A stretch of 57,638 nt of DNA, counting the filler, from Sphacelaria rigidula (lineage: Eukaryota): NCBI GenBank assembly GCA_964200075.2. It is 8 parts of 8 records of this genome, joined end to end, with 100 filler letters (N's around TTAATTAATTAA, not from the genome) between each part and the next. Parts side by side here need not be neighbours in the genome. Positions count along the whole stretch, not along the records: positions 1 to 7,118 come from CAXNAA020016399.1; 7 more parts are not named here. One strand, 5' to 3'. This document shows, piece by piece, positions 1-50,521 of the stretch (position 1 is the stretch's first letter; each line of letters starts with the position of its first letter). Below the pieces are notes generated by a model. That model ran no database searches and had not been told where the DNA came from. It saw only the letters and a list, made by a program, of their open reading frames with translations. The translations under genes and the position numbers were made by a program.

Positions 1-2
1 TT

Positions 3-248
3 GTCGGTTGTTATATTTATTATCGAACCCAGACGACAGGGTGGCAACTGGCACAGGTGATGGGTCTTTTGGAAGATGCAGCGTTGCAAAGGCGTCCGCA
101 CACTATAAGGATGCTGGATCTCGGGCGAAGGTACAACGTTCATCTATTGATGGAAAATTTGAATACTTCTCGAATTCGGGTGGGAGATTGGTGTTGGCAT
201 TATCATGTGCAGCGGGGGACTTCGAAAATTTTCGCGCATACGCTATAG
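3..248 (+). CDS. 3' end of a reading frame open from the contig start; putative Pol/integrase C-terminal beta-rich (SH3/Tudor-like) domain
   Basis: Frame 3 is open from base 3 (VGCYIYYRTQTTGWQLAQVMG...HTIRMLDLGRRYNVHL...GDWCWHYH...TL*) and is followed by AT-rich non-coding sequence. The domain identity is inferred. Confidence 0.4.
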   Translation, partial: VGCYIYYRTQTTGWQLAQVMGLLEDAALQRRPHTIRMLDLGRRYNVHLLMENLNTSRIRVGDWCWHYHVQRGTSKIFAHTL

Positions 249-506
249 CTGAAAGCACTGGAGGGGGACATCTACAACCATCAGATTTGAACACGGACAT
301 CCGAAGATTATAGATGATGGGAGTGGTTTGGCATCCGTACATAACAAAAAGATAGAGATGGAGCTGAGCGGGAGAACGATGGAATGCTATCTAATCTACT
401 GTTCTTCGTTGGAATGTTTCTCTGTTTTATTATGGATATTGTTTGGGACTTCATATTAATGAGACGTGAACCGCAATTGAAGTATGAGGCTGATGTTGGG
501 GAGTGA

Positions 507-1414
507 TGTATAAAATAATTGTAGAACCGAGTGATGTTATATGTGTGTATGTGTATATGTGTGTGTATGTGTATATATGTGAGTATGTGTGTGAGTATGT
601 GAGTGTGTAAGCGTTTTATTCATTCTGAACGCAAACTCGCACCCGTGTCTATTTTTCCGAGATCTTTTTTTTTTTTGGTTTGAGATTTGTTTGAATATAG
701 AAGCACAGGTTGGGAGAATTATTGGGGCTCACTCAATATGTAAGCACGTAGCTAAAGTTTGTTCACCGAAATCATCAATACAATGATGACGTTTAGGTTC
801 ACAGAATGGGCTGATGTGTTGAGCCGATCTCTTGGTGACTTTATTGCTTTATATCAGATGAACAGAAATCAACAGAAAGATTATGTGTGTACAAGAATTG
901 AACTGTTTGAAGCTAGAAAAGACCGTTGTTCGTAACATGAGCATAAACTTATGGATTTTTGGGTACTTTGAGGCATGAGTTCAGGGTCAAACAGGGTAGA
1001 GGTATACTTGTGTCCACTGCAGGTGGAATAGTCCAGAAGAATGTGTGTCCAGAATCGGCAGGTCAGAGAGTTTGTACTTGATTGTAGGCAGATATCAGAA
1101 AAATAGAGGAATCTTGGTATCTAGCGGGGTTTTGGATCAGTATATAGCGAGGTTTTCAGGCTTTTCGGGTGAGGTACGTTGGCGGGATGAAGAGGTCGAC
1201 TGGGGAGAGTGAACTAGGTTTTAGGTTCACCCCCCCACCAAGACACTTCCTACCTCCCTCTTTCTCACTCCACTCAGTTTTACTGTTTTTAGAGTGGAGC
1301 ACTGTTTGTACAAGTGCAAGGTTGGATTCTGTTGGGTTGAGTTATAGAAACCGATAATAAAAACAACATTTTTAAGTCTTTGGAGCATCAATCATCTCTG
1401 TTCGACACGTCACA
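507..1414 (+). repeat. Candidate LTR (boundaries uncertain)
   Basis: PPT-like GGGGAGTGA directly before TGT at 507; AATAAA near 1356; possible ...ACA ends at 1368 or 1414; TGG at 1381 or 1431 as possible PBS; hairpins at 1209-1230 and 1268-1299; TG-rich microsatellite ~538-608. No second LTR is present to confirm it. Confidence 0.3.
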
Positions 1415-1563
1415 TCTTCTACTAGTCTGCTGGTGTCTCGGTCACGTCTTCACAGTCACCCACAAAAGCGACTGAACCTATCAAGAAAAAGGAGCTCAAG
1501 CTTATCTCCTGACAGTGGCGGTCGACGGTAGTTCGCGGGGTGAAGGCCAACAGCTACACGAAC

Positions 1564-3756
1564 ATGTCTGGTAAGCGGGGTCGTTCTTGCAGTAAGATTA
1601 GGCCAGTGAGCAGGCGTACTCGGTCCCACAGTAGAGTAGAGGACAATGCAACCATACAGGAAAACGACGGTAATGAAGACAGTGATTTTTGTATGTCTGA
1701 ACCGTTCAGTCCTGGTGATGCGTTGGAAAGTAGGAAGTCAGTTGAAAGTGCGCGAGACCTAGGGTCGGGGCTTTTGGCGAATACAGTGACTAGCACAGAC
1801 GGGGAAGGGGATAACAGAAATGAAAGCTCGTTAACAATCCACCCCCGGGTGTTGAAAAACATCGACTGTACAGATAGTGAAACGGAGATGAAAAACACTT
1901 CTTCTGTTGCAGCGTGTGTAGGCTCGGTAGCTAGCACTGACAGGGAGGGTAGCTCTACCGACAATCTTGACTCGGCGCTCCGAAACCCTGAAGTAGGCGA
2001 CATGGATTGTGTAATAAGCTCACTCGGAAATAATTCGAGGCTTGAAACAACCCATGTTGACAACAAAAGTGTGAGGGAGAAGACTGGTAGAGAGTCAACT
2101 CCCCTCGCTACTGTACAAATTGGTAGTGAGGTGTCCGCTACCTCAGACCATGTCGATGTTGATGTTGATGTTGATTCAAATCCACGATTGCCGATTGATG
2201 TGACTGCAATGCCATTAGATAGCCGCATGCTCTCCACGTCGAGGATAAAACAGGGTGGTCGGAAGGTAACTCCTTCAGGGGTCGTTCAACAAATTTTGAT
2301 GCTCAATAAAACGGAATCGCAATTACGTTCAATCTTATCTGATATTGAGTGTAGTAACGATAACACGGACAACACTGAACATGTGAAGGAAGAACCGCGA
2401 CAAATTTTCGGAACGCAGGGGGTAAATGCTGTTTCAGCAGGTGTAGAGCCTAGAGCACATGTAACTAGTTCTCGGGTGGAAGATCCAACCATTGTGTCCA
2501 GGACACCACGTGAAATGATACCTCACCAGGTATTAACGTTACGTGCCACTTCTGTTGTCGGTACTACCTCGTCCCCCGCAGACAACGAAGCCCACTCGGT
2601 TGCTGCAGAGACTTCTTCTGAACAAGTAGTCCAGAAGGAATCGCCGGCCACGGACATACCGATATCTCGGACTGTGGAGGTGAACAACCCTGAAACAGTA
2701 GAGTCCCCTAGTCACGACAGAATTGATACCGATCAGTCCAAGGCTGTGATGGAGGGTGTAGTGACGAACCTCCGTCAGATGTTGGACTCCTTATCGCATG
2801 AAGATCGTTGTCGAGTGACTGGTATTGATCCAAAAGACGATAGTCAACAATGTACGACTGTAGCAGCAGCGGGTGGTGCATATACCCCCATTCCGGTAGT
2901 TCCGAAAAGATCTAGAACCGCCGATATAGAGACAGATGCGGGCAAATCACTACCCACGTCGAAAACGGAAATTGGACGATTGGGTGAAGAAATAATGACA
3001 CCTCAAGTACAGTTGGTCTCCACTCGGGAAACCACCTCTTCTACCAGTTCGGATACCGAGGGGGATGAAGCTCTTGCTTTACTGCTGAATCAATCCGAGA
3101 TTCGCGCGGCGGTACGTAGAAAGAAACGGTCGGAGGCGCTGTTAAAAAAGGATGAAGCCATTGCCAGGAAACTGTCTACACTTTCGATCAGCGAACCATC
3201 AGTTAGTGAAAAGGGAGAAGTTCCGGAAATCGCATGGAACTTGGTAGGACCACGAGGGCGGTCATATGCCCAAGTAACTAGTACAAGCACGGCTCAGTTA
3301 AACAACATCGCTGATGACTGCAGTCCTCCTTGCGATGCAAAAATACCACAGAACGCCAGAGCTAAGCTGGATAAAGGAGCAAAGGCCTTTAAAAACACAA
3401 AGGCGGGTTTGGACAGAATCCTTGACAAAAAGGCACTGGTGGGTACTAAGTTGGAAGAAGCGAGAGCAACTCTCGAAAATTTGGAAGAGGAGCACATCGA
3501 ACTAGATACCTCCGCAAAGAAGGAGGAGGCGGTGGTTAACCGAGCGCGCAAGCGTAGAGAGGCCACTACCTCGAGGCATGTAGACAATGCCAACATCCTG
3601 CCTCAGCGACTTGATCCTCCCAGTTTGGAGCGTCATCAGCAGCAGGCCCTCAAAGCTGGTAGAGAGGGGAGGGCATCTGAGCTCGAAGGTAATCGTCAAC
3701 CGATGATTGAGATGGCACGGTACAGCCGCATCAAAATCCTAACCCTGCCCTCATAG
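1564..3756 (+). CDS. Retrotransposon ORF1 or extended Gag N-terminus (low-complexity, S/T/D/E-rich, coiled-coil-like C-terminal part)
   Basis: About 730 uninterrupted codons from the ATG at 1564 (A at -3); overlaps the gag frame by 46 nt. Confidence 0.7.
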   Translation: MSGKRGRSCSKIRPVSRRTRSHSRVEDNATIQENDGNEDSDFCMSEPFSPGDALESRKSVESARDLGSGLLANTVTSTDGEGDNRNESSLTIHPRVLKNIDCTDSETEMKNTSSVAACVGSVASTDREGSSTDNLDSALRNPEVGDMDCVISSLGNNSRLETTHVDNKSVREKTGRESTPLATVQIGSEVSATSDHVDVDVDVDSNPRLPIDVTAMPLDSRMLSTSRIKQGGRKVTPSGVVQQILMLNKTESQLRSILSDIECSNDNTDNTEHVKEEPRQIFGTQGVNAVSAGVEPRAHVTSSRVEDPTIVSRTPREMIPHQVLTLRATSVVGTTSSPADNEAHSVAAETSSEQVVQKESPATDIPISRTVEVNNPETVESPSHDRIDTDQSKAVMEGVVTNLRQMLDSLSHEDRCRVTGIDPKDDSQQCTTVAAAGGAYTPIPVVPKRSRTADIETDAGKSLPTSKTEIGRLGEEIMTPQVQLVSTRETTSSTSSDTEGDEALALLLNQSEIRAAVRRKKRSEALLKKDEAIARKLSTLSISEPSVSEKGEVPEIAWNLVGPRGRSYAQVTSTSTAQLNNIADDCSPPCDAKIPQNARAKLDKGAKAFKNTKAGLDRILDKKALVGTKLEEARATLENLEEEHIELDTSAKKEEAVVNRARKRREATTSRHVDNANILPQRLDPPSLERHQQQALKAGREGRASELEGNRQPMIEMARYSRIKILTLPS

Positions 3757-5348
3757 ATGTAGGTGGCGTTCAAATCACAATTGAGGGCTTCAGATTCCTG
3801 CAGAAGACCTGTCCTCCAGGGGTTACTCTGGTGGAATGGCACCACGTACACGTGTTCCGGCGGGATGTCGAAAAACTTCATTTTAGAACTCCTCTGCACT
3901 CACCTTCGGAGCCCAGGGAGGTTATTGGTAGCTGGGATGGAGGCAGTATTGGATCTAAATCGGAAGGATCGCAAGAGACAAGCAGGGATAGGCTGCCGAA
4001 TTACTATGCTGGAGTCCAGGGATCTAGAAAGAAAAGGTATGCTTCATCTACGATAGAGCAAAAGAACCTAGGTAGTACTAGAGATAGAAGTGTGGTACCG
4101 GACTCGAACGTAGCTAGAGTGGTATCGTCTGGTCAGGCTGCTCCTCAAACTGTTTCCCCGCCCCTGGTTCCGGTGACAGTAGCAACTCAACGTAATACCT
4201 CATCCGTTACAGAAAAAACTGCTGCAGAGATAGCACGGGAATATGCCAAGATGGACACATCTGTCCCGATTGAATTACCCAAACTACCTTTGAGTGTAGA
4301 TCATGACGTGGAAGACTTGGTTGCGTTTGGTGCAGCTCTCCGTGATTCCATACAAGATATGCGCATAATTGTGGGAGATTCTGAACCCCTGTATTGGAAA
4401 AGAGGGTGGGAAAAGTGTCTACAGAAGCATCTTCTCAGGGCAATCCGTGGCAAATCTTCCCATCATTCTCAAACCATTTCCACATTGAGATCGCAAATAT
4501 CTGAAGTTACAACCGAGGCAATCAGAATGCAAGAAGCGGGGTCAACTGGGCCTGAAGCCTTCGACCATGTGTTGCGTATACTAAGTAGGGCTCTCAGTAA
4601 GGTCACGCCCGCAGGAGTAATGGGACTGTTAGTCAACTTCACGGTTGAAACTGGCACCACTTTTGCTACATACTTGGCAGAGTTGAGGATGTTGGTCGCA
4701 AATGTTCAAAGTGTTGGTCGCGAGCTGGCACCTGGAAATGGCTCAATACAATCCGCCATCAAAAATGGTATCGACGATCAGTTCCCCAACATAAGTGCCC
4801 AAGCTTTTGCTGGTAGACATCATCAACCTCTCCCCTTTCATGATGTTGATCAAATGATGAACGCTCTTCGGGATTTTGACACAAACACATCAAAAGCTGT
4901 AGCTCCTTCGCGTTTCGGTACTGGCAGTGCGGGTGGTGTAATTACCAGGTCTCGACACTACGCTAAGGCTTTACACAGTCGCAAGTTTGGCGGGGTGATG
5001 GCAATCTCGGAGTTATACGAGGAAGAGGATGTTGAAATGCAACATGTCCATTCTATAGGGGCGAGACAAAACCAGCGTTTTGGGAAAAAGGGTCGTGATC
5101 CTCCTTTCTATGAACCTTTTTCCTCGCGGGAAGAAAAAGATGCGGCTCGCAAAGCATTCGGACCGTTCTGTTTAAATTGCGGTAGTTCAGACCACATACT
5201 GGCTCGAGATTGTCCCCATGAATATATGAATAAATCGGGTATAATACATCGTGAGATGGGGGAAGGATCTCTGAAAGACATTTCTGAAAAGTGGAGGAGA
5301 TGGCAACGTAGATTATGCGATTATCATCGTAATAGAAACAACAATTGA
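3711..5348 (+). CDS. gag: Gag (capsid-like helical region plus CCHC zinc knuckle)
   Basis: Frame open 3711-5348 (ORF track starts at GTG 3831; first ATG is 4251); CLNCGSSDHILARDC near the C-terminus. Confidence 0.8.
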   Translation, partial: DGTVQPHQNPNPALIDVGGVQITIEGFRFLQKTCPPGVTLVEWHHVHVFRRDVEKLHFRTPLHSPSEPREVIGSWDGGSIGSKSEGSQETSRDRLPNYYAGVQGSRKKRYASSTIEQKNLGSTRDRSVVPDSNVARVVSSGQAAPQTVSPPLVPVTVATQRNTSSVTEKTAAEIAREYAKMDTSVPIELPKLPLSVDHDVEDLVAFGAALRDSIQDMRIIVGDSEPLYWKRGWEKCLQKHLLRAIRGKSSHHSQTISTLRSQISEVTTEAIRMQEAGSTGPEAFDHVLRILSRALSKVTPAGVMGLLVNFTVETGTTFATYLAELRMLVANVQSVGRELAPGNGSIQSAIKNGIDDQFPNISAQAFAGRHHQPLPFHDVDQMMNALRDFDTNTSKAVAPSRFGTGSAGGVITRSRHYAKALHSRKFGGVMAISELYEEEDVEMQHVHSIGARQNQRFGKKGRDPPFYEPFSSREEKDAARKAFGPFCLNCGSSDHILARDCPHEYMNKSGIIHREMGEGSLKDISEKWRRWQRRLCDYHRNRNNN

Positions 5349-5397
5349 AAATGCAACGGTGAAGATCGGGCACCTTCATCGATAGCAATTCAGCCCG
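5346..5397 (+). promoter_or_regulatory. Candidate stop-codon readthrough signal: UGA + 8-nt spacer + H-type pseudoknot
   Basis: UGA 5346-5348; spacer AAAUGCAA; stem 1 CGGUGAAG (5357-5364) with CUUCAUCG (5374-5381); stem 2 CGGGC (5367-5371) with GCCCG (5393-5397). Pairings were assigned by eye. Confidence 0.6.
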
Positions 5398-7118
5398 CTA
5401 TAGGTAATGTGAATACTTGTGGCGTTACTGTGCTTAGTCCACACAGTACAGTTGGCTCAACCTGGCACGGGCGGAACACCAACTGTAGGGGTGGGAGAAA
5501 TCCACTTCAAAAGGGTAAAAAGGGTGTATCCGATGGAACGATAAAATTTAAAGCAGGAACTGATCATTCCCGTGGAGGTATTTTGAAAGTTGGAAAGGAT
5601 CCACACTTTTGTATAGATAGCGGTGTCAACCAGTCTGCAGGCACTTTATTGCAGACAGGTGCTAGTGTGGCCCTGGAGTTGAAATCTGGCACGACACTCA
5701 AATCTAACCGTCGGAATAGTGCTGCGGTTAGGGGTCATTCCCCTAGTTGTGCACCAATCTTAAGCGATAGTTTATGTGAAAATAAACAATCGAGTGCAAA
5801 AGCAAACCACCGAGTTGAATCATCAGTTGAACCTACGGCAGGTGCCAGGGTTATGGATGAACCCGATGTGATTGTACAGTCACATAGTACAGAGCGCCCA
5901 ATAGAAACAGTAAGCATCCAGGGTGAGGCAAGAGGACCGCCAGTTCGAGATACGAAACAAAGTACTTCTCGATACCCATCTGGACCGGGGAAAACATGCA
6001 AGGATCTCTCTGTCGAAGATTCCACCATGCACGAAACAAACGCCAGCATTGGTCGGAACAGTAAGAATAGAAATCTGAACGAACAGACTAAAATCGCCCT
6101 TGCTAGAACTAAAGTTCTATTGGTGCACAATAAAAATGCATGCATCAGTCGAATGAATAGCAATGTTCCGGTGGGATACAAGGAGGGTTATTCCACTGAC
6201 ATGTCTACTGAGAAAAACAAAGGTAATCGTCTTGGTCAGAAACATGATAAAACTATGGTGGGTAGCAATGGCAGTCTTTCAACAGATGATTCCGATGTGC
6301 ACGGTTTATCAGCATGTACCTCTCGGGACAACAGTAGTAAAGGTCAGGGAGGGAAATTGAGAGTTGACCCTACTCTTGATCTGGCAACCGTACATGAGGT
6401 TGGATTAGCAGATGACGGTTACAATGTGCAGGATAGCATGACTATTGATTTCTCCAATAGTGCCGTGATAGCATCCCGAGACACTTCACGTCTTGTAGAC
6501 AGTGACGAGTCTCCATGTCACGTAGTGCCAACTATAGTAGTAAATAATGGTAACGAGCCTAATAGGAACTCAAGCAATACAATATATGCTCTGGATCCGA
6601 AAACAGGTAACCGTCTACCTGATTCAAAAGTACCTGTACGCATTCCGGCTACAATATCTAGTCCAATTTTGCGTGGTCGTGAGGGTAGATACTTGGAAGA
6701 AATTCATGCAGCTGTGGGAGGAGAAGTCAGTCTGAATCGAAAAGAAAATTCAGCCTTCGTTCAAATCTTTTCAGGCCCGAAAGCAACGCGAGCCATGGAG
6801 GTTAAAGCTCTGATGGACACGGGAAGCCCTGCAACGTTTATCCAGTATCCGGTGTGGAAGAAAATGGTGGATATAGGCGCCGCCACCATAGAAGGTGCCC
6901 GCGAAATTGATCCAGTATCATGGGGAGGTTTTAATGGTGTTCCCTTGTGCACCTCGTCACAGGTCCGATTAAACCTTAGGTTATGGCCTCAAAAACCCAA
7001 TCCTAAAAGTTCAATCCAAAACGGGAGGGCATGTTTAGCAGTTTATGCTCATGTGGTACCGGAAGGCACAATGAACTATGATATTCTGGTGGGGCGTGAT
7101 GGGTTAGAATTATTTCCG
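5349..7118 (+). CDS. pol: Pro-Pol N-terminal part: long low-complexity spacer followed by aspartic protease; truncated by contig end
   Basis: Same frame as gag, with no stop from 5349 to the contig end; DTG catalytic motif at 6816; ILVGRD near 7083. Confidence 0.8.
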
Positions 7119-7218
7119 NNNNNNNNNNNNNNNNNNNNNNNNNNNNNNNNNNNNNNNNNNNNTTAATTAATTAANNNNNNNNNNNNNNNNNNNNNNNNNN
7201 NNNNNNNNNNNNNNNNNN
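7119..7218. other. Artificial 100-nt contig linker
   Basis: N44-TTAATTAATTAA-N44 (stops in all six frames). Confidence 0.97.
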
Positions 7219-7345: not shown

Positions 7346-7944
7346 GATGACATTCAAATCCCATTCAAAGCGGTGAGCGATTCGGAAACCATTAATCTAT
7401 ATTATGCAGCAGCAGACTCTCCGTGAGGAGGGGACGATGCAAAGAGGCCAAGGCTGGCAACACGCGGAGATAAGAGCGCAAGATGATTGACGTCCGGACC
7501 CACAAGCACGCAAGCAGTTGAATTGCAAGCCATGGTGTACTTTGTGTTTTGTCGCGGATTACCGTTTGTGTGCTATTTTTTTTCCAGATTCCAGATGTCG
7601 TGCTATGAAACGACAAACCTGGCATATACCCGCAATATCACTTCAAGGTGTTGTGACCACGAGTACTGTACTGTTGTAATGTCTGTGTACCTGTACTGTT
7701 GTCAGGTGCAGACCCCAATCCTATTTCCATTTTTCTCGTAATCATGTAAGCATCTTTGTTAGAAACGACCCATACTAAAAATGGCAAAAAAATAGCCGGT
7801 AACGGCAAACCTCAAATAAACTGGATAAACTGGAGTCCTCATCACCAGTTCCAGTTAAACTCCAGTTCCAGTTAAATTCCAGTTCCAGTTAAATTCCAGT
7901 TCCAGTATAACTGCCAGTACAAACTGGTCCAGTTCACAGCCCTA
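7346..7944. mobile_element. Non-autonomous DNA transposon fragment with hAT-like terminus (C/T)AGGGCTGTGAA(C/T)TGGACCAG
   Basis: Homologous to 40997-41886 and, inverted, to 19973-~20115; subterminal TCCAGTTCCAGTTAAA repeats ~7845-7905. Confidence 0.65.
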
Positions 7945-8416
7945 ATTATTTGTGAATCGGCATCATTATCAGTAGCTTTTCAAGTGATACAGTGCCGATT
8001 CACAACGGGCCCTCCCCCGGGGTTAGTGGGGATCCGGTCCCAAAATTGTTGTGCTATTATTATACGAAACGGTCTCGACAAAACAGAAACATCAAGACGG
8101 GCGGGCAGAACCAACGGAGTAATCTGAAAACCGAGAACCACAACGAAAATACAGAAAACAAATGGCACGCTCTTACACTGTCTCTCTCTCTCTACACAGA
8201 CACACAGACACACAGACACACACACATACACACACACAAGATAAAAAAAAACTTCAGAGGAAGGAAGCAAGGTGAGGAAGAGAAATAATTTCTATATTTG
8301 ACCGTTTGTATCGTGAGAGGCCTCTTTTGTTGAGATTTTGCCTAATGTGTTGAATACTTTTCGAACATATTCTCGTGCTATCTGTTGTTGTCATCGTCAC
8401 CATTTTTCTCTGGCAG

Positions 8417-9811
8417 GACGGCGGCTGGGTTAGCAGGGGCAACCGAACTAGGCGGACTACTGCAAGATCCGGATATTTTGCTGGCCAGTCGACCTGTGCT
8501 CCCGTGGACTGCGAAGGACAGATTGGCTAAGATGGACGGCAACAGAGATAGGGTGAGTTGTTAGTTGCTGGGGCAAGGAAGTAATAAGAAAACAGCATGT
8601 TTTCGGAATATTTATATATATATACATGTATATATGCTTTCATGTGGTGTGTTACTGTTGTAAGGGGTTTTGTGAATGACGTCATATGCTCCATCACTCG
8701 CACGATCCAGGAAGTGATTCAATGGTTTGATATAATAGTAATCATTTTACTTTACGTGCTGATTTTGATGTTCGTTTTGTCTGTCTTGCTATTTGGGTAG
8801 TTATTTGGGTGGCTTGTCCATCCTGTTTCCGCCCATTTTTGCATGTCACGTTCTGTCCGCTGTTTCTACTGCTCTTAAACCGCTCCTTATGGCAAACAAA
8901 ACAAAAATAATATCCTATAAAACTGCCTTTTTGGTCATCCCGTGTCGTTTTGCGCCCTACAACAGGGCTTGGCGGATGTTGACGCCTTGGAATGCCTTGC
9001 TATACTCGTGGAGACGGTTCCGAAACACCGTTGCGTTTGCCGGTGGCCGCAGTTTCTTTTTCGGTCAAACTTGCATTTTTTGTCCGAGAGAGATTGAGAA
9101 CGATCAAGTCCACAAGAAGCCGCTTGGCTGAAAAATAGTGCTGCTTATGGATGGATAAATAAGAAAACTCCGTATGGACATGGGCATCCATTTTTATCCG
9201 CATGGATGTCGGCATCCATGTGGCAGCTTTTTCTCGACTCGGCCGTCTTGCACGAAAATGAAAATTTGGGCAATAAAGAAATTGCGGCCACCGGAAAACG
9301 CAAGGTGTCCTGGAACCGTTTCAACGAGTAGACCAAGATATTCCAAGGTGTCAACATCCGCCTAGCCCTCTTGTAGGGCGTAAGACGACGCATGAGGACC
9401 AAAAAGGCAATTTTACAGGATTCTTTGTTTGCCATAGGAAGCGGCCCGGCCCGTACTCAGTCGCCACGACAGCATATAAAGATGTTTTCATCGCACACCG
9501 GCAGCAGCTGCATGCCTGATATACGGTAGATGAAGACTTGCGTTTTGTGCAGCCTAAAATACGCAAGATTTGATCGATGTGAATCGTCTTTACTATTGTA
9601 CGGATGGATGCTCATATCCATGCGGGCGTAACAGTCGCCACAGTCCTTACCGCGTGAAGTTGCAATTCTGACGTGTTTTTTGCTTCAATATTGTTGGTTT
9701 TGACGTTACGTACTAACGGCTGTTTTCCTTCTGACGCCGTCAGTTGGAGTCGGAGGCTAAGGCGAAGGCGGAGGCGCGAAAACGCCTTATTCGGAGGCAC
9801 GGGGGGGATGG
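8417..9811 (+). CDS. Two internal exons of an unidentified host gene (8417-8552, 9744-9811)
   Basis: Both have pyrimidine-CAG acceptors and GTGAGT donors and join in phase: TAAGLAGATELGGLLQDPDILLASRPVLPWTAKDRLAKMDGNRDR|LESEAKAKAEARKRLIRRHGGDG. Confidence 0.6.
8880..9444. mobile_element. Long-TIR MITE/foldback element
   Basis: About 200-bp imperfect terminal inverted repeats (CCGCTCCTTATGGCAAAC...GTTTGCCATAGGAAGCGG); related copy at 35011-35444. Confidence 0.8.
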
Positions 9812-36864: not shown

Positions 36865-37965
36865 GAAGGGCGAGCGGGGGTACTCATTTGTCGCTTGCCG
36901 TAGTCGTTCGATCACCGACCATATATCCCTTGCGAGACGGAGCCCCGTTACTACTCCTAGTAGAGACACCTCCAACATTCCGCCGGTCATCACGTTTCTT
37001 CCATACATTACACAGGAACCTTTTACATATCTTACCCCCTGCCTGTTTCGCCGTCTGTGGCCACCATCCATCTGTTAGTATAGCCATCATTTTCTCGCTA
37101 CTATCTTCTTGTACGAAACGATTTCATGCAACCTTTGTTTACTTCCGACATTGAGGGGGGCGGGGGCGGGGGCGTACTCATTTGTTGCTTGCCTTAGTCA
37201 TTTGACCATTGACCACGCATCCCTTTCGAGACGGGGGGGTGTACCCATGATCATGCATGCCGTAGCCATAAAACCACTGACCTCGCATCCCTACAAAGCC
37301 GGGACGGGGCACGCCGGGTTTTCGCCATACCAGGCTCGCAATCAATCACCAAGCGCGAAGCGCCGTGGTGTGTTCGGCGAGCCGCATGAAGGGTGGGCTG
37401 CATCCTGCTAAGAATGTTTGGCCCGGAGTGTACTAATCATCATGAATATGAAAATGGCAGCCTACAATGATTTGCTCTATTTTCTGGCATCGCCACTTTC
37501 AGAAACAGCCGCGGGTTATGCACGGCCTCATGGTTGTCTCACTATTTAAATACACACTACGTAGTACGATCACCCCCTCTCCGCAGGGTGGAGGTTCTCT
37601 CATCCCGCACAACATGATCTACCTCGACTACCATAATGTTTACCGCAAAAAAAACGCAAGCGCGCAAATAAAAACGGCAACCAGGTCGCCTAGCTTACCC
37701 AAAAAGTGGCGTGTTTCACAGCGTCATTGCCAAGGGACGCTGCCTTTCTAGGGGGTCCATCCCTACAAAGCCGGAACGGAGCACGCCGGGTTTTCGCCAG
37801 ACCAGGCTAAGGGGGAAGGGGGGGCATACTCATTTGTTGCTTGGCTTAGTCGTTTGACCAGTGACCACGCATCCCTTTCGAGACGAAGCACCGCTGCTAC
37901 TCCTCATAGGGAAACCTCCAACATTAAGGTGCTCATTGCTTTTCTTCCATACATTACACAAAAAT
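36865..37965 (-). mobile_element. Head-to-tail stack: LINE-A (37965-37825), element B (37808-37240), LINE-A (37233-37173), LINE-A (37152-36880), each ending in a C-tract
   Basis: All units are co-oriented and separated on the + strand by G-tracts at 37811-37824, 37233-37239, 37155-37172 and 36862-36880. Confidence 0.85.
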
Positions 37966-38030
37966 ATTTCACCCGTCGGACAAGTCATTACTAGTCGAAA
38001 CGAGTGCACTCGTGGATGTTTTTTGAAAAC

Positions 38031-38298
38031 ACAACGAGCATGACTCGCGTGCTCGAGTCATCACTTTTCTGTACAACGACCAATGCCTCGTGTGCTCCAG
38101 TCATTACTTTTTTTACAACGAGCAATAACTCGAGTGCTCGCACTATTATGTATTTTGCACAACGAGCAATGACTCGAGTGTTCGCCCTATTAATGTTTTC
38201 CACAACGAGCAATGACTCGAGCACTCACCCTATCAACGTTTTCCACAACGAGCACTGACTCCAATACTCGCCCTATTAATTTTTACGGTCAACGAGCA
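38031..38298. repeat. Tandem repeat of ~43 bp, 7 copies (core ACAACGAGCAATGACTCGAGTGCTCG), probably a transposon subterminal array
   Basis: Copies start at 38031, 38073, 38115, 38159, 38202, 38245 and ~38289; intervening sequences are related to one another. Confidence 0.85.
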
Positions 38299-40097
38299 GC
38301 CCAACGAGTACGACTGCCATGATTCACACCCATGCTCACCCGACATGTGAAACCTTTTACATATCGTATCCCCAAGGGGTGAGAGGGCGAACGAAGAAAA
38401 GAAGAAGCGACAAAAAACAGAGTGCAATGTACGCGGAGGCACAACACCAACAGGCAGGTCCCTACTGCCAGGATCCAAACATGTAGACTGTACAAGAAGG
38501 AAGGCCGTGGAACCAGCTTGCGACTCCACTATCTGGGAATCACGCTGTTTGAGCAGGAAATCTCTGATGCCAACTCCACAGGAGGCGGACGCGAACTGCC
38601 TACACGTCAGACAGCTCACGAGCTACCCATACATTACTCATCAGTGAACTAATCCGCATCACGCGCTAGCTCATTTGGCCCCCACCGGACTGGACGCCAA
38701 GCATTCGGAGTCGCGCAAACGTGGAGCCCTGGCTTCTCGGACCCCGCTGCCACGTATCTTGTGTTCTTGGACAAGGCATCTGAGAGTGAGCAATGCTACG
38801 GTAGGGGGGGGTTGCACTTCTTGTTTCTGGGTCTCTTTTTTGTAGGAGCCTAAATATATGGGGCTTACTGTACTGTGCAACACAAATCTCCGGTGACCGG
38901 ACTCCCAGAAACGTGGTTACACGCAGGGGGCCGATTCGTAAATCGGAATCATTTGCAGTCTTTTTTTCAAGTAAAAATAATGCCGATTCTCGAAATGATC
39001 CGTCCAACGCCCGGAGCAGCTCCGAGAAACGTTTTCGCTAAAAAAAGAGTGGGCCTGAGGAAATGTACGTAAACAATGGTTGGTACTATGGAGATGCCGC
39101 CGACCCTAACGCTAACCCTGACCCTAACCTCGACCAAGGCATACCGAAAACCCTCGGGCATGGGGGGTGCGAGGTGTACCCTAGGCAAAGTGTGCTATTA
39201 CCAGAGCTCAAGTCTACGCCTTTCAGCCGGTTTTCCACCGAAACGCGTTCTGGACGAGCTGGGTCTATTGCTCACCACTGCTCACCTACCCCAGACCATA
39301 AAATTTCTCAGAACTTTCTTCAGTCTGAAATCAAGAAAAATCGAGCACCAACCATTGCTGACGTACATTTTGTGGGATCTACTGAAAAAAAGTGTAACCT
39401 CTACCGTAGGATTGCTCGAGTCCTCTTCGACTAGTTGTTCTAGGTAACCCATGAGCGATACGATGTGTGAAACGGTCCAACAACACATTACACGAGATAC
39501 GGAGGGACCACCTACTGCGTCTTGCGGACTACGGCTGAGGCACGGGCCAGGAACCGGGGAAACACATGCGGGGGGTGTTGGGAGTACTTCAGACACGGTG
39601 TGGCGTGCGTGTCGACGGGAGTATACGTGCTGTGGAGTCCGATAGGAGACACGTCTGAACCGTGTTTGACTGCAGGGGCAAATCGTACCGAACGCTTCAC
39701 AAGTCCCACAGCTCGTGAGTTGTCTCCGTTAGGTGGAATCGCTTATCCACTGGGAATAGGTGCCGCTGAGAGCTACTGAATAACTCACCCTATGAAAAAA
39801 GATACCGCTGAGCTATCTCGTACAACTCAGTCAGCGCGGATAGACACCGCTCAGTTATACCGTATAACTCAGCGCTGAGTTATACAAGAGTGAGTCAACT
39901 CGAGTTAAGGGGGCTTGAGTTGTCCGACGTGTGTTTCCCGCAAAAGCAAAAATTTTAGATTCACGATTGTATTCTGCGATGCGTAGGGTTGAAACTGTCT
40001 GTCTGAAACATCCCTCGTGTTAAACACTCTTACACCGGTCGGGCGATATCAAAAAGGAAAACCATCAACGAACATTACACAAAGTTTTTGAATCTTA

Positions 40098-40355
40098 CGA
40101 GGGTCGGACAAATCAATGAGTCGTCTGGGAATTACTTTGGTTTTAGTGTGATTGATTCGAATCGTACGAATCAATCCCTAGGCTTCGTTTTCAGCGTTAC
40201 AATCCAGGTACACGCAACCCAGACACGTGGAATGGCGCAAAGGTTGCGTGGATACCCCTTGGACCAGCGGTCAACGTTTTTCTCCCTTTTGGGCAATCAG
40301 GTCGAAGAAATCGTGCATTTGGTTATTCGAACCCGTGATGATTCGTTCTAACCGT
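40098..40355. mobile_element. Tc1/mariner-type MITE
   Basis: TA|CGAGGGTCGGAC start; homologous copy at 51244-51508 ending GATTCGTCCGCCCCT. Confidence 0.65.
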
Positions 40356-40504
40356 GGGATCTTAGAGCGCGTGTCTGTGTATTATTATCGAGGACGGTAA
40401 CAGACACGCGCTGTGTCACTTCTGGCTTATCCATCGTGGTATTAGGCGCTTCGCGTAGACTTTACCAATAACGAAAATGGCGAGCACAAAGTACTCTCTT
40501 CCTC

Positions 40505-40543
<39 letters not shown>

Positions 40544-40996
40544 ATTTGTTCATTCTTCAATTAGTTTCATTCAGCTTTATGGATGGTAGTTCATGCTCTA
40601 ATAATGGGGTTCCCAAAAATGACGTCCACGTTTCTCCTTGCTCCTTTTCACACGGCGTTTTCCCCCAGAGTGATGCTGCAGTGACAGGGCATTCCTTGTT
40701 TCTTGTTTTGGCATTTCCATTTATTTACCCATTCATTAATTTATTTGTAGCGCTGTGAACTGGCTGCTCTGGCCAGTTGAGTTCAAGCTGGCCGCGCAAA
40801 CGGCCAGTACATCGATGTTTTTGCAGTTAATCGGCTCGGCGAAGCCACGAGCCGCAAACGCCCCCCCGGCTGGTGAGGGGGCCTCGCGGGAGCGCCGCTG
40901 GAGGCGAGAAAAAATGCGTTATTTGGCTTGTTTCACTTCAAAAATGTGGAAAAGTGTAGCAAATGAGACACCTCACATTGAGGAGCTAGAGTCTTA

Positions 40997-41886
40997 GATG
41001 ACATTCAAATCCCATTCAAAGCGGCGAGCGATTCGAAAACCATCCATCTGTAATATGCAGCAACAGACCCTCCGTCAGGAGAGGAGGATACAAGCAAGCC
41101 AAGGCTGGCAGCACGCGGGGATAAGGTACGCTAAATTAAGTAAAAAAGAGCCTTTACTCGGGTGTTATCGTAAAAAACTGGCCGTTACCATACTAAAAAG
41201 TCGTGAACCAGTGAAAAAAACTGATCCACTTTTTTGGTTCATAATGCCCTAGCGAGGCCACACCCAAAATTTTATTACACAAACACCAAACGTGGGCCGG
41301 TAAGTGGCCTGCAAAATACTGTTTGGATTCTTACCGACCCGGTTTTTAAATGGCCCATTAGTAATCTATTACTTAGAGTTGGATCCTAAAAATTGGTATA
41401 GACAATCAATGGGGCATAAAAAGAAACGTCATGCGTTGACCCAACAAGTTATTTTTCCATGAGTTGAAGGCAATAATCAGTTTTCACCTTTCAGTCCAAT
41501 GCCGTTAAAGCATGAAAAAAAAAATCTTTGGGTCCATGCATACCTTTTTTTCTATGCCCTATTGATTGTCCATACCAAAGTTTAGGGTTCAACTCCGACT
41601 ATTAAATTGCGAATGGACCTGCAAACTCCAAATCTGCTTCTAGGCTGGCCCAGCTCGTACCAGGAGTACTGTCTGCACTTGTACTGCTGTCAGGTGCGGG
41701 TCCCAATGCTACTGCCATTTTGTTCGTAATAATGTAAGCATCTTTGTTATAAACTCACCGTACCGGATTTTGGTATAAACATAGCCAGTAACGGCAACAT
41801 TCAGATAAGCTGGAGTCATTACCAGTTCCACTTAAACTCCAGTTCCAGTTTAATCGCCAGTACAAACTGGTCCAGTTCACAGCCTT
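40997..41886. mobile_element. hAT-like element (family of 7346-7944) containing an internal foldback at ~41355-41617
   Basis: Both ends align with 7346-7480 and 7660-7944; the middle is replaced by sequence with ~90-bp imperfect inverted arms. Confidence 0.65.
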
Positions 41887-42626
41887 ATTTATTTGTTGTT
41901 GCTATTTATTTATTGCTGTCATTTTTGTTGTTTTTATCGGGACTGACTATTCGTGTGTGTCTTGTGTTCACTTTACTCTTCATGTAAGGCATAGCAATGA
42001 CGGTACTGGAAAGGTGAGCCTACGTCCGAGACCACGGCCTCGAGAGATTCGCGCTATTGTGTCTAGTGTGCCGCAATAATAATAATAATAATAACCCCGT
42101 TTGCTGTCCCTTCCTTGCTTCGTCTTCTCCTTTCCTCGATTCAGTTTCCTTCAGCGACTTTTTTCCGTGTTGGTGAAACCTTTTGGTACACACTTATCTT
42201 ATGGCCGCGTCTGGGTTCCTCCATCGTGTGATCAGCTATTGCGTGGCAAAAAACAAAAAAAAACATCAAGTACAATCAATCACCTCACCCCGTACTACTG
42301 CCCTTCCTTAGTTCGACTCTCTTGATGCGGGAGGCACAGTATTGCAGCGGTGTCTTGCACTGCGAAATATTTTGGAAGCATTACGAAGAAAAAGACAGGA
42401 GAAAACAAGAACAAACGACACCATCAATTTCGTCCGATTCACCGTCTCACGACAGTAATGGGTGTATCCAGGGGAAGCTGCGGGAGGGGGGGGGGGGGGG
42501 GGGCCCTGGCCTTTTTGGTCTGTCACTTCCCCGACCCCAGCAAGACCGATGCCCCCTCGATCATGGATCACGNNNNNNNNNNGTTCGAACCCACCGGAGA
42601 GGGGGCGGCGGCATGTCGGCTGGGGT

Positions 42627-43204: not shown

Positions 43205-43304
43205 NNNNNNNNNNNNNNNNNNNNNNNNNNNNNNNNNNNNNNNNNNNNTTAATTAATTAANNNNNNNNNNNNNNNNNNNNNNNNNNNNNNNNNNNNNNNN
43301 NNNN
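43205..43304. other. Artificial 100-nt contig linker
   Basis: N44-TTAATTAATTAA-N44. Confidence 0.97.
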
Positions 43305-47972: not shown

Positions 47973-48610
47973 CAAGGGCAGGTCGGGTAGGGTATAGATT
48001 CGGTACGACCTCGAATATTCTACCCAAATTTGGTTAGAGCACTCTCAACAGTACCTGGGTATAGAGATCACTTGGGTATGACCTCATCACCCTAGCCAAA
48101 GTTTGGGCGGATCGGGTACGACCTCAAATACTCTACCCAAATTTTGATAGAGCACTCTCAGCAATACATGGGTGTAGAGTATCACTTCGGTATGACCTCA
48201 ACACTCCACCCAAGTTTTGGGTAGATCGGATACGACCTCGACTACTCTACCTGAATTTCGGGTAGATCGGGTACGACCTCAAATACTGTACCCCATTTTT
48301 GGTAGAGTACTCTCAGCAATACCTGGGTGTAGAGTATCACTTCGGTATGACCTCCACACTCTACCCAATTTTTAGGTGGATCGGATACGATCTCAACTAC
48401 TCTACCTAAATTTAGGGTAGATCGGGTACGACCCCAATTTCTCTACCCCACTTTTGGTAGAGCACTCTCAGCAATACCTGGGTATAGAGTATCACTTGGG
48501 TATGACCTCTACCTAAATTTTGGGTATTGGATATTATCTAAAAGCTCTACCCAAATATTGTGTAGTTTAGGCACGATTTCAATACTTCACCCAAATGTTG
48601 GGCAAGGTCG
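47973..48610. repeat. Hairpin-containing tandem array with higher-order structure inside a hAT-type element
   Basis: Starts with TIR CAAGGGCAGGTCGGGTAGGGTA; GGTA(C/T)GACCTC recurs at spacings of about 73, 40, 74, 40, 41, 74, 40, 41, 74; monomer contains CTACCCAAA/TTTTGGGTAG. Related arrays at 49368-50002 and ~28095-28350. Confidence 0.85.
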
Positions 48611-49367: not shown

Positions 49368-50002
49368 CAAGGGCAAGTCAGGTGGGGTATGTACTTTTGA
49401 ATACTCGGGTAAAGTACCCGGGATTTACTCTACCCGAGCTTTGGGTGGATTGGGCACGGCCTCAAATGCTCTACCCAAGGTTTTGGCTAGATTGCGTACG
49501 ACCTCAAATAATACACTCAAATATTGGGTAAGTACCCTCAGCAATACCGGAGTATAGAGTATCACATGGTTATGACCTCAAATACTCTACCCAAATTTGG
49601 GTAAGCACTCTCAGCAATATCTGGGTTAGAGTATCACATGGGTGTGACCTCAATAATATACCCATATTTTCAAGGTTCAGAGTGCGTGTTGTCATTCCCT
49701 TTATCCTGGACGCCAGTCTACACCAGGTGTAGACTAACGGTGTAGACTGGCGTCCAGGATAAAGGGAATGACAACACGCACTCTGAACCTTCAAAAGTTT
49801 CCACTCCAAGCTTCTTCCACTTTGACGAAAAACCATTCATTTTCCGAAAATTTCTACTATGGGTATCATCTACCACTTTACCCAGATTTTGGGTAGTTTG
49901 GGTACGATTTCAACATTTCACCCAAATGTGCTAGGAATGTGCAAGGTGTACAACTCCTCGAAAATACCGAGTTTTGGGTATACCGAACCCGATTTGTCCT
50001 TG
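49368..50002. mobile_element. hAT-type non-autonomous element with the same internal array, interrupted by a palindrome
   Basis: TIRs CAAGGGCAAGTCAGG...CCCGATTTGTCCTTG. Confidence 0.65.
49672..49791. repeat. Perfect 53-bp inverted repeat with 14-nt loop
   Basis: 49672-49724 is the exact reverse complement of 49739-49791. Confidence 0.95.
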
Positions 50003-50421: not shown

Positions 50422-50521
50422 NNNNNNNNNNNNNNNNNNNNNNNNNNNNNNNNNNNNNNNNNNNNTTAATTAATTAANNNNNNNNNNNNNNNNNNNNNNN
50501 NNNNNNNNNNNNNNNNNNNNN
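50422..50521. other. Artificial 100-nt contig linker
   Basis: N44-TTAATTAATTAA-N44. Confidence 0.97.

Follow-up and report, generated by a model that had tools for sequence, protein, structure and literature searches.

A candidate structure-aided UGA readthrough junction between gag and pro in a multi-copy retroelement of the alga Sphacelaria rigidula

Results

Gag and protease reading frames lie in one frame across a single UGA

The window analyzed here is a stretch of 57,638 nt (filler included) from assembly GCA_964200075.2 of the alga Sphacelaria rigidula, composed of 8 pieces of about 7118 nt each that are joined by 100-nt N/TTAATTAATTAA linkers. Its first piece (positions 1 to 7118, from CAXNAA020016399.1) carries the 5' side of a retroelement in which a gag reading frame is followed by a protease reading frame; the other 7 pieces contain no further copy of it. 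The features of this locus are the following:

1540..3756, + strand: upstream open reading frame of 738 aa, probably the N-terminal part of Gag (frame arithmetic, relatives)
3831..5345, + strand: gag open reading frame in the form present in this copy, 505 codons (ORF map, relatives)
4596..4892, + strand: helical domain resembling a capsid C-terminal domain (CTD; structure model)
5169..5213, + strand: CCHC-type zinc knuckle, CX2CX4HX5C (sequence)
5346..5348, + strand: in-frame UGA between gag and pro (sequence, ORF map, relatives)
5349..5356, + strand: A-rich spacer of 8 nt, AAAUGCAA (sequence)
5357..5381, + strand: stem 1 hairpin of 8 bp with a 9-nt loop (part of the MFE structure)
5367..5397, + strand: candidate stem 2, CGGGC at 5367-5371 with GCCCG at 5393-5397 (complementarity only)
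5349..7118, + strand: post-stop open reading frame, a linker and then protease, with no further stop before the piece ends (ORF map, relatives)
6750..7118, + strand: retropepsin-fold domain with DTG at 6816-6824, truncated where the piece ends (structure model)

The TGA at 5346-5348 is the sole stop across the 1,136 codons of its frame between 3711 and 7118, and 590 codons stay open past it to the end of the piece. Between 3702 and 7118, this frame holds 2 stops (3708 and 5346) while the other forward frames hold 58 and 99, so that the ORF map bears out the initial annotation of this DNA in placing gag and the downstream reading frame in one frame with a single UGA between them. Frameshifting is not required as a route from gag to pro because the two share their frame. 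Selenocysteine insertion or a reassigned UGA at 5346-5348 was considered as well and set aside with nothing in its favor. That the downstream reading frame is cut at 7118 follows from the assembly of the window from pieces and not from decay. The stop stands in the context AAU-UGA-AA and is followed by AAAUGC, which agrees with the earlier statement that the context is not of the CARYYA type; nor is this UGA-A of the UGA-C/CU type, and UGA-A is not known as a leaky context.

The assignment of the upstream partner as gag draws on structure and on the zinc knuckle. In Foldseek, the gag model (pLDDT 75.5) returned nothing significant. VIA-align matched its residues ~80-178 to the Copia capsid (Z 7.3, rmsd 3.4, 90 aligned), PNMA2 (Z 7.0), PEG10 CA-CTD (6.8), the Ty1-derived Drt2 (Gag CA-CTD; 6.5), and MOAP1 (6.4); all 5 of these matches are retroelement capsid CTDs, with Z scores of 6.4-7.3 that are middling but consistent. 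At the sequence level, Pfam gave 0 matches at E<=0.01 for the three reading frames of the window, and a profile of the gag family found only weak matches in the PDB, to retroviral nucleocapsid knuckles at E 0.05-0.6. Among the relatives described below, P0065 has a zf-CCHC match at E 4.4e-6. The knuckle of the window copy, which had been placed directly before the UGA in the initial annotation, in fact lies 44 codons before it.

Downstream of the stop, a poorly conserved linker of about 470 codons leads to the protease, and two relatives (P0121 and P0155) carry a NADAR domain ahead of protease (E 4e-36 to 4e-46). The last 153 residues before the end of the piece were modeled with a pLDDT of 86.7, and the top Foldseek matches of this model in the PDB are the FIV, RSV, and HIV proteases together with DDI1 (E 1e-4 to 5e-3). 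By sequence, the protease profile had 0 matches in the PDB, and Pfam Peptidase_A2B reached relative P0002 at E 0.011 only, below the family cutoff. P0002 aligns with few gaps at 53% identity over query residues 534-1096 (its protease part at ~85%), and relative P0025 aligns from query residue 522. Because of the capsid-like fold, the CCHC knuckle, and the retropepsin fold, we take the pair of reading frames, as modeled, to be a retroelement gag followed by pro. The initial annotation went further and spoke of pro-pol; protease is all that is visible of this in the piece, which ends at 7118, and no pol is seen. Searches of the window and of the relatives detected neither reverse transcriptase (RT) nor integrase (IN), whose order together with RNase H distinguishes Ty1/copia from Ty3/gypsy elements, and the protease-bearing relatives reach at most 138 aa past protease. 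A repeat search detected no LTR pair in the window, where only the 5' side of the element is present, and a reading of positions 1-1620 did not define an LTR boundary.

The element is a multi-copy family whose copies keep gag and pro in frame

To compare this copy with others, contigs of four public sequencing runs (X1, X3, X4, and X6) were aligned to positions 1000-7118, bearing in mind that contigs drop rare forms. The three deeper runs gave 478-513 pieces each, with a likeness to the window ranging from >99% down to <90%, and the element is a multi-copy family. One joint in these contigs, from 1255 to 4755, belongs to an internal-deletion derivative.

Most copies differ from the window in their upstream part. 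An extra C behind 3717 is found in the majority (depth 226.1 of 376.5 in X1, 35.8 of 66 in X3, and 41.9 of 41.9 in X4), and frame arithmetic done by hand shows that it would bring 1540-3756 into frame with gag and so bypass the stops at 3708, 3754, and 3760. Gag is therefore probably one reading frame of ~1,260 codons in most copies. A long single Gag reading frame agrees with the 370-1380 aa that precede the Gag domain in distant relatives and with homology that begins upstream of the first ATG of the gag reading frame (4251); the upstream reading frame at 1540-3756 itself had no match among the relatives retrieved. Since it is without the C behind 3717 that most copies have, the window copy may be slightly defective, or else misassembled at this base.

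Around the junction, all listed length differences amount to 27 nt. They comprise an insertion behind 5405, gaps totaling 27 in an 88%-alike contig over 5275-5653, and a diverged copy that has 175 nt in place of the 148 nt at 5343-5490. Because the listed differences are multiples of three, gag and pro stay in one frame in other copies. The diverged copy is <80% alike and could not be aligned over 5343-5490, so primary sequence is not conserved there. No variant at 5346-5348 is among the best-supported differences listed (1341 further differences lie beyond the list), which is weak evidence for TGA in all copies. One contig that resembles relative P0003 reaches >=80% likeness to the window over 5325-5397 only. 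Directly ahead of this block, 17 of 30 nt are identical (hand count), and hand translation of the loose end there gives RRWQHRLCAY, a stretch of P0003. This pattern may point to additional conservation at the nucleotide level near the stop and the structure behind it, although the conserved block ending at 5397 may merely stop at the adjacent 27-nt indel.

The conserved frame bears on how protease is expressed. In the window copy, the first in-frame ATG after the stop lies at 5853, 168 codons downstream, and P0002 (from residue 534) and P0025 (from residue 522) encode homologous sequence over the stretch ahead of it. Ribosome entry from gag by UGA readthrough is the simplest account, since stop and frame are conserved and no ATG is available over these 168 codons. 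Alternatively, pro or pro-pol could have an RNA of its own, spliced or internally promoted, or could be translated through non-AUG or internal initiation, with the UGA serving as an ordinary Gag terminator. Separate routes have precedents: Drosophila copia sets Gag versus Gag-Pol by splicing, and a minor promoter is located within the junction of the Candida element Tca2 (PMC2194720). Moreover, P0025 and P0002 are called with an M 9-28 codons past the stop, though this M may denote GTG or TTG. Yet a frame kept across the stop in other copies would be needless if protease were expressed apart, the window copy offers no ATG where one would be wanted, and no joint skipping the stop is listed in any of the four runs, bar the one replaced stretch, in contigs that drop rare forms. 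We regard separate expression as improbable.

The stop is shared by diverged relatives

With the read-through protein as query (TGA written as X), an exhaustive HMMER search retrieved 365 relatives at E<=1e-3, most of them metagenomic fragments. The two closest of these end at the same residue as Gag of the window: P0003 (77% identical) with ...YHRNRNKP and P0021 (62%) with ...YHRDRSNP, compared with ...YHRNRNNN-stop here. More broadly, 33 relatives contain the Gag C-terminus, and 19 of them end within ~15 residues of the window stop while 14 run 24-160 residues beyond it; because these ends were read from proteins, a stop and a contig end look the same, as do the different stop codons. Not one of the 33 has a protease match (0/33), and the sole protein that matches both gag and protease, P0089, is a 185-aa internal-deletion form without the Gag C-terminus. 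The conservation of the stop that the initial annotation had proposed to check in homologues is thus upheld in part: the common end of P0003 and P0021 and the lack of any relative reaching protease suggest that the stop is, apparently, ancestral, and the stop and frame relation is common to relatives, but the 14 longer proteins suggest that its position is not fixed family-wide or that it is absent in some relatives.

Other searches for the family added little. A profile of the gag alignment found no related loci in metagenome contigs and viral contigs. A search with P0053 had a sole match of 33 residues in genome contigs, which lies on a bacterial scaffold and was rejected as spurious. No fused forms of protease and RT were found among the relatives, the Protein Atlas contributed only unnamed clusters without taxa, and 0 of the 23 relatives whose records were examined carry a name.

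The shared stop also speaks to a more trivial account, in which nothing is programmed: this copy or the whole family would be non-autonomous or in decay, with the stop tolerated because what lies downstream is dispensable and the hairpin behind it a product of chance. The base that the window copy lacks behind 3717, the failure to find RT or IN in the window or in any relative, and internal-deletion derivatives (P0089 and the joint from 1255 to 4755) would all be expected of such elements. A decaying family would hardly keep 590 codons open after the stop and a protease ~85% conserved with P0002, though, nor a stop common to subfamilies that are only 62-77% identical, and the contig pieces, of which hundreds are 80-100% alike, speak for repeated amplification. 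This account is very improbable in our estimate.

A hairpin stands at retroviral distance behind the stop

The UGA is followed by the spacer AAATGCAA (5349-5356), which has 8 nt with 6 purines and thus is purine-rich and of about the length known from murine leukemia virus (MLV)-type signals. Stem 1 then forms between CGGTGAAG (5357-5364) and CTTCATCG (5374-5381) and encloses the loop ATCGGGCAC (5365-5373). Its 8 bp with one G-U (5359/5379) starting 8 nt after the UGA are as the initial annotation had described them, and the same is true of the second pairing proposed there: the GCCCG at 5393-5397, which starts 11 nt past stem 1, is complementary to CGGGC at 5367-5371 in the loop. With these 5 bp only as stem 2, the loops of a candidate H-type pseudoknot would measure 2, 2, and 11 nt, sizes that we judge to be sterically reasonable.

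Within a 181-nt context, the predicted pair probabilities of stem 1 are 0.97-0.98; on its own the stem has an energy of -9.0 kcal/mol, and the stem 2 duplex is estimated at ~-8.3 kcal/mol. The MFE fold of the 55-nt segment (-12.8 kcal/mol) lengthens stem 1 on its outer side while GCCCG stays unpaired, which makes it a rival to the pseudoknot of similar energy. The hairpin is therefore solid and the pseudoknot only possible, as a matter of complementarity. Overall, the folding energy at the junction is ordinary: the 55-nt segment has a z of -0.91, with 44 of 200 shuffles folding equally well, and the 181-nt context has a z of -1.01. Rfam includes gammaretroviral readthrough families, and none of them was among the matches at E<=10, which were two chance rows.

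We also asked how often such a hairpin occurs by position, scanning the piece for stems with at most 1 G-U and loops of 5-14 nt under criteria that were set after the structure had been seen. A stem of >=8 bp exactly 8 nt downstream is found at 12 of 6898 positions, and 3 of 6898 positions have in addition a 5-bp pairing between loop and downstream sequence. Looser criteria (spacer 5-10, stem >=7 bp) are satisfied at 139 of 6898 positions for the hairpin and 21 of 6898 with the second pairing; in dinucleotide shuffles of the local 100 nt, the corresponding figures are 83 and 11 of 5000. A hairpin at MLV-like spacing is thus rare by position (~2%, or ~0.2-0.3% with stem 2), and these figures are optimistic because the criteria were chosen with the structure in view.

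Other copies bear on stem 1 through a single position. At 5359, most copies have A in place of G (depth 2421.5 of 2907.6 in X1, 1213.8 of 1507.5 in X3, 454.7 of 549.8 in X4, and 34.1 of 34.1 in X6), which turns the G-U into an A-U and leaves stem 1 wholly Watson-Crick; the change is one-sided. We weighed these observations with the possibility in mind that the UGA is bypassed for Gag-Pro while the hairpin or pseudoknot is incidental, the bypass relying on other signals such as distant RNA elements, host tRNA pools, or a protein of the element that targets the release factor, as has been proposed for Tca2. An incidental structure fits a junction at which stop and frame are conserved yet the folding energy is ordinary, as well as the diverged copy that defies alignment over 5343-5490. 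It also has a parallel in the Tca2 junction, where a similar spacer and pseudoknot were insufficient for readthrough in Saccharomyces cerevisiae (PMC2194720). What argues for a functional hairpin instead is that the exact MLV spacing is seen at so few positions of the piece and that the majority variant at 5359 strengthens the stem, and we consider an incidental structure rather unlikely.

Discussion

A tentative model of the junction

Our overall reading, which we find plausible and put forward tentatively, is that the window holds the 5' half of a single member of a multi-copy, retrovirus-like family of the LTR-retrotransposon type, an element that uses structure-aided UGA readthrough. Most ribosomes would halt at the UGA and release Gag, whereas in a minor fraction a near-cognate tRNA would decode the UGA and yield a fusion of Gag, linker, and protease, presumably with pol behind it. 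With the UGA positioned in the ribosomal A site, the hairpin that starts 8 nt further on would stand at the mRNA entry channel, where it could raise readthrough as in MLV, perhaps in the form of an H-type pseudoknot. The in-frame stop, the position of the hairpin, and the protein folds are direct observations or models of this locus, and from them we infer both readthrough itself and a role for the structure, to which we attach different degrees of confidence. Readthrough or bypass from gag is probable, and the structure as its stimulator is a less secure possibility. The pseudoknot-stimulated UGA suppression proposed in the initial annotation is accordingly supported in part, by an apparently old in-frame UGA with a hairpin at MLV spacing, while its pseudoknot comes down to 5 bp of complementarity.

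A wider interpretation would see here an undescribed, widespread algal lineage, represented by the 365 metagenomic relatives, with a Gag of ~1,260 aa, a fast-evolving linker of 450 aa (with NADAR in some members), and structure-stimulated UGA readthrough as the first such signal documented outside animals, fungi, and amoebozoans. We mention this as a doubtful extension of the model. Our literature search found no description of gag stop readthrough in diatom or stramenopile retrotransposons, a subject on which Additional file 1 of Maumus et al. may bear.

Comparison with known readthrough systems

The MLV signal has a first stem of 8 bp and a second stem of 7 bp. The algal junction shares with it the single frame with one stop, the purine-rich 8-nt spacer, the 8-bp stem 1, and possibly an H-type pseudoknot. 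It differs in its stop (UGA-A as opposed to UAG-G), in a candidate stem 2 of 5 bp, in the ~470-codon linker that precedes protease, and in the lack of sequence similarity, and readthrough is predicted here, whereas for the UAG of MLV with its purine-rich 8-nt spacer and pseudoknot a level of ~5% is given (PMC2194720; features also in PMC5009743).

Tca2 (pCal) of Candida albicans, a Ty1/copia element, is a close parallel. Its gag-UGA, purine-rich 8-nt spacer, and pseudoknot were described in 1997 (PMC2194720), and the novelty suggested in the initial annotation was thus overstated. The algal element has the same gag-UGA and purine-rich 8-nt spacer with a candidate pseudoknot and is known from sequence alone; unlike Tca2, it does not reside in a fungal host, and the two have no detectable protein homology. 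With dual reporters in S. cerevisiae, the Tca2 junction gave no readthrough, a cryptic promoter accounted for the downstream expression, and the mechanism of stop bypass in Tca2 is described as still unknown (PMC2194720). This precedent shows that the architecture is no guarantee of readthrough.

In-frame stops between gag and pro/pol are found in other retrotransposons as well. Such gag stops are presumed to be read through in Skipper of Dictyostelium and in the fission-yeast Ty3/gypsy elements Tj1, Tcry1, and Tosmo1-3 (PMC10085805; PMC5911963), and the fission-yeast elements have a conserved short context, GAA-TGA-CT (PMC10085805). The algal junction resembles all of these in its in-frame stop but combines AAU-UGA-AA with a spaced structure where the fission-yeast elements have a short context. 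Skipper reportedly has a pseudoknot shortly after its stop as well (Leng et al. 1998). RNA viruses, for their part, are said to carry extended 3' stem-loops ~8 nt after readthrough stops that are usually longer and comparatively supported (Firth et al. 2011); the algal hairpin is likewise a stable structure ~8 nt past the stop, here predicted and with a stem of only 8 bp.

The algal junction adds a member to this known readthrough-type arrangement and no new mechanism. If confirmed, it would provide a natural readthrough signal for algal genetic tools and would extend the combination of stop, 8-nt spacer, and structure in the style of MLV and Tca2 to an algal retroelement lineage, which would suggest that one ribosome-level solution to the Gag:Pol ratio has evolved repeatedly and independently.

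Composition of the window and its other repeats

The window is made up of 8 pieces of ~7118 nt each, joined by 100-nt linkers that are all identical, and neighbouring pieces are not necessarily contiguous in the genome.

Linkers between the pieces (each 44 N + TTAATTAATTAA + 44 N)
7119-7218
14337-14436
21554-21653
28771-28870
35988-36087
43205-43304
50422-50521

Besides the retrovirus-like element of the first piece, several direct repeats of 75-90% identity (D4, D6, D9, D11 and D12) link 7346-9414 with 35029-41896 in two other pieces and therefore represent another dispersed repeat family. A tandem array with a 155-nt unit (48089-48553 and 49469-49623; three adjoining copies and one further copy 1 kb off) likewise lies in a different piece from the element, and an imperfect (TG/TA)n microsatellite is located upstream of the element at 535-610.

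Reading frame and structural variants of the element

The majority of copies, as represented by contigs from three public sequencing runs, carry an extra C at 3717, which would join the upstream ORF (1540-3756, 738 codons) and gag into a single ORF of ~1,260 codons. Because most copies share this nucleotide, the window copy appears to be either frameshifted or misassembled at this position. Behind the gag stop, some copies have a 27-nt in-frame insertion (9 codons) at 5405 that is absent from the window copy and corresponds to the residues TGGPAP of the protein relative P0025. The family also includes internal-deletion derivatives, one being the 185-aa protein P0089 that joins a mid-Gag stretch to the protease and another being a contig with a joint from 1255 to 4755 that skips 3499 nt.

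The linker between gag stop and protease

In each of the four runs, summed contig depth across 5488-6099, within the linker part of the post-stop ORF, exceeds the depth on either side 10-30x. The contigs of these runs show near-fixed differences in this segment at 5789, 5818, 5896, 5901, 5935 and 5957, and loose contig ends are numerous at 5600-5990. The segment is related to a short repeat that is far more abundant. In two protein relatives of the element, P0121 and P0155, a NADAR domain is found N-terminal to the protease (E 4e-36 and 4e-46, respectively), as an accessory domain in a position equivalent to the linker of the window copy.
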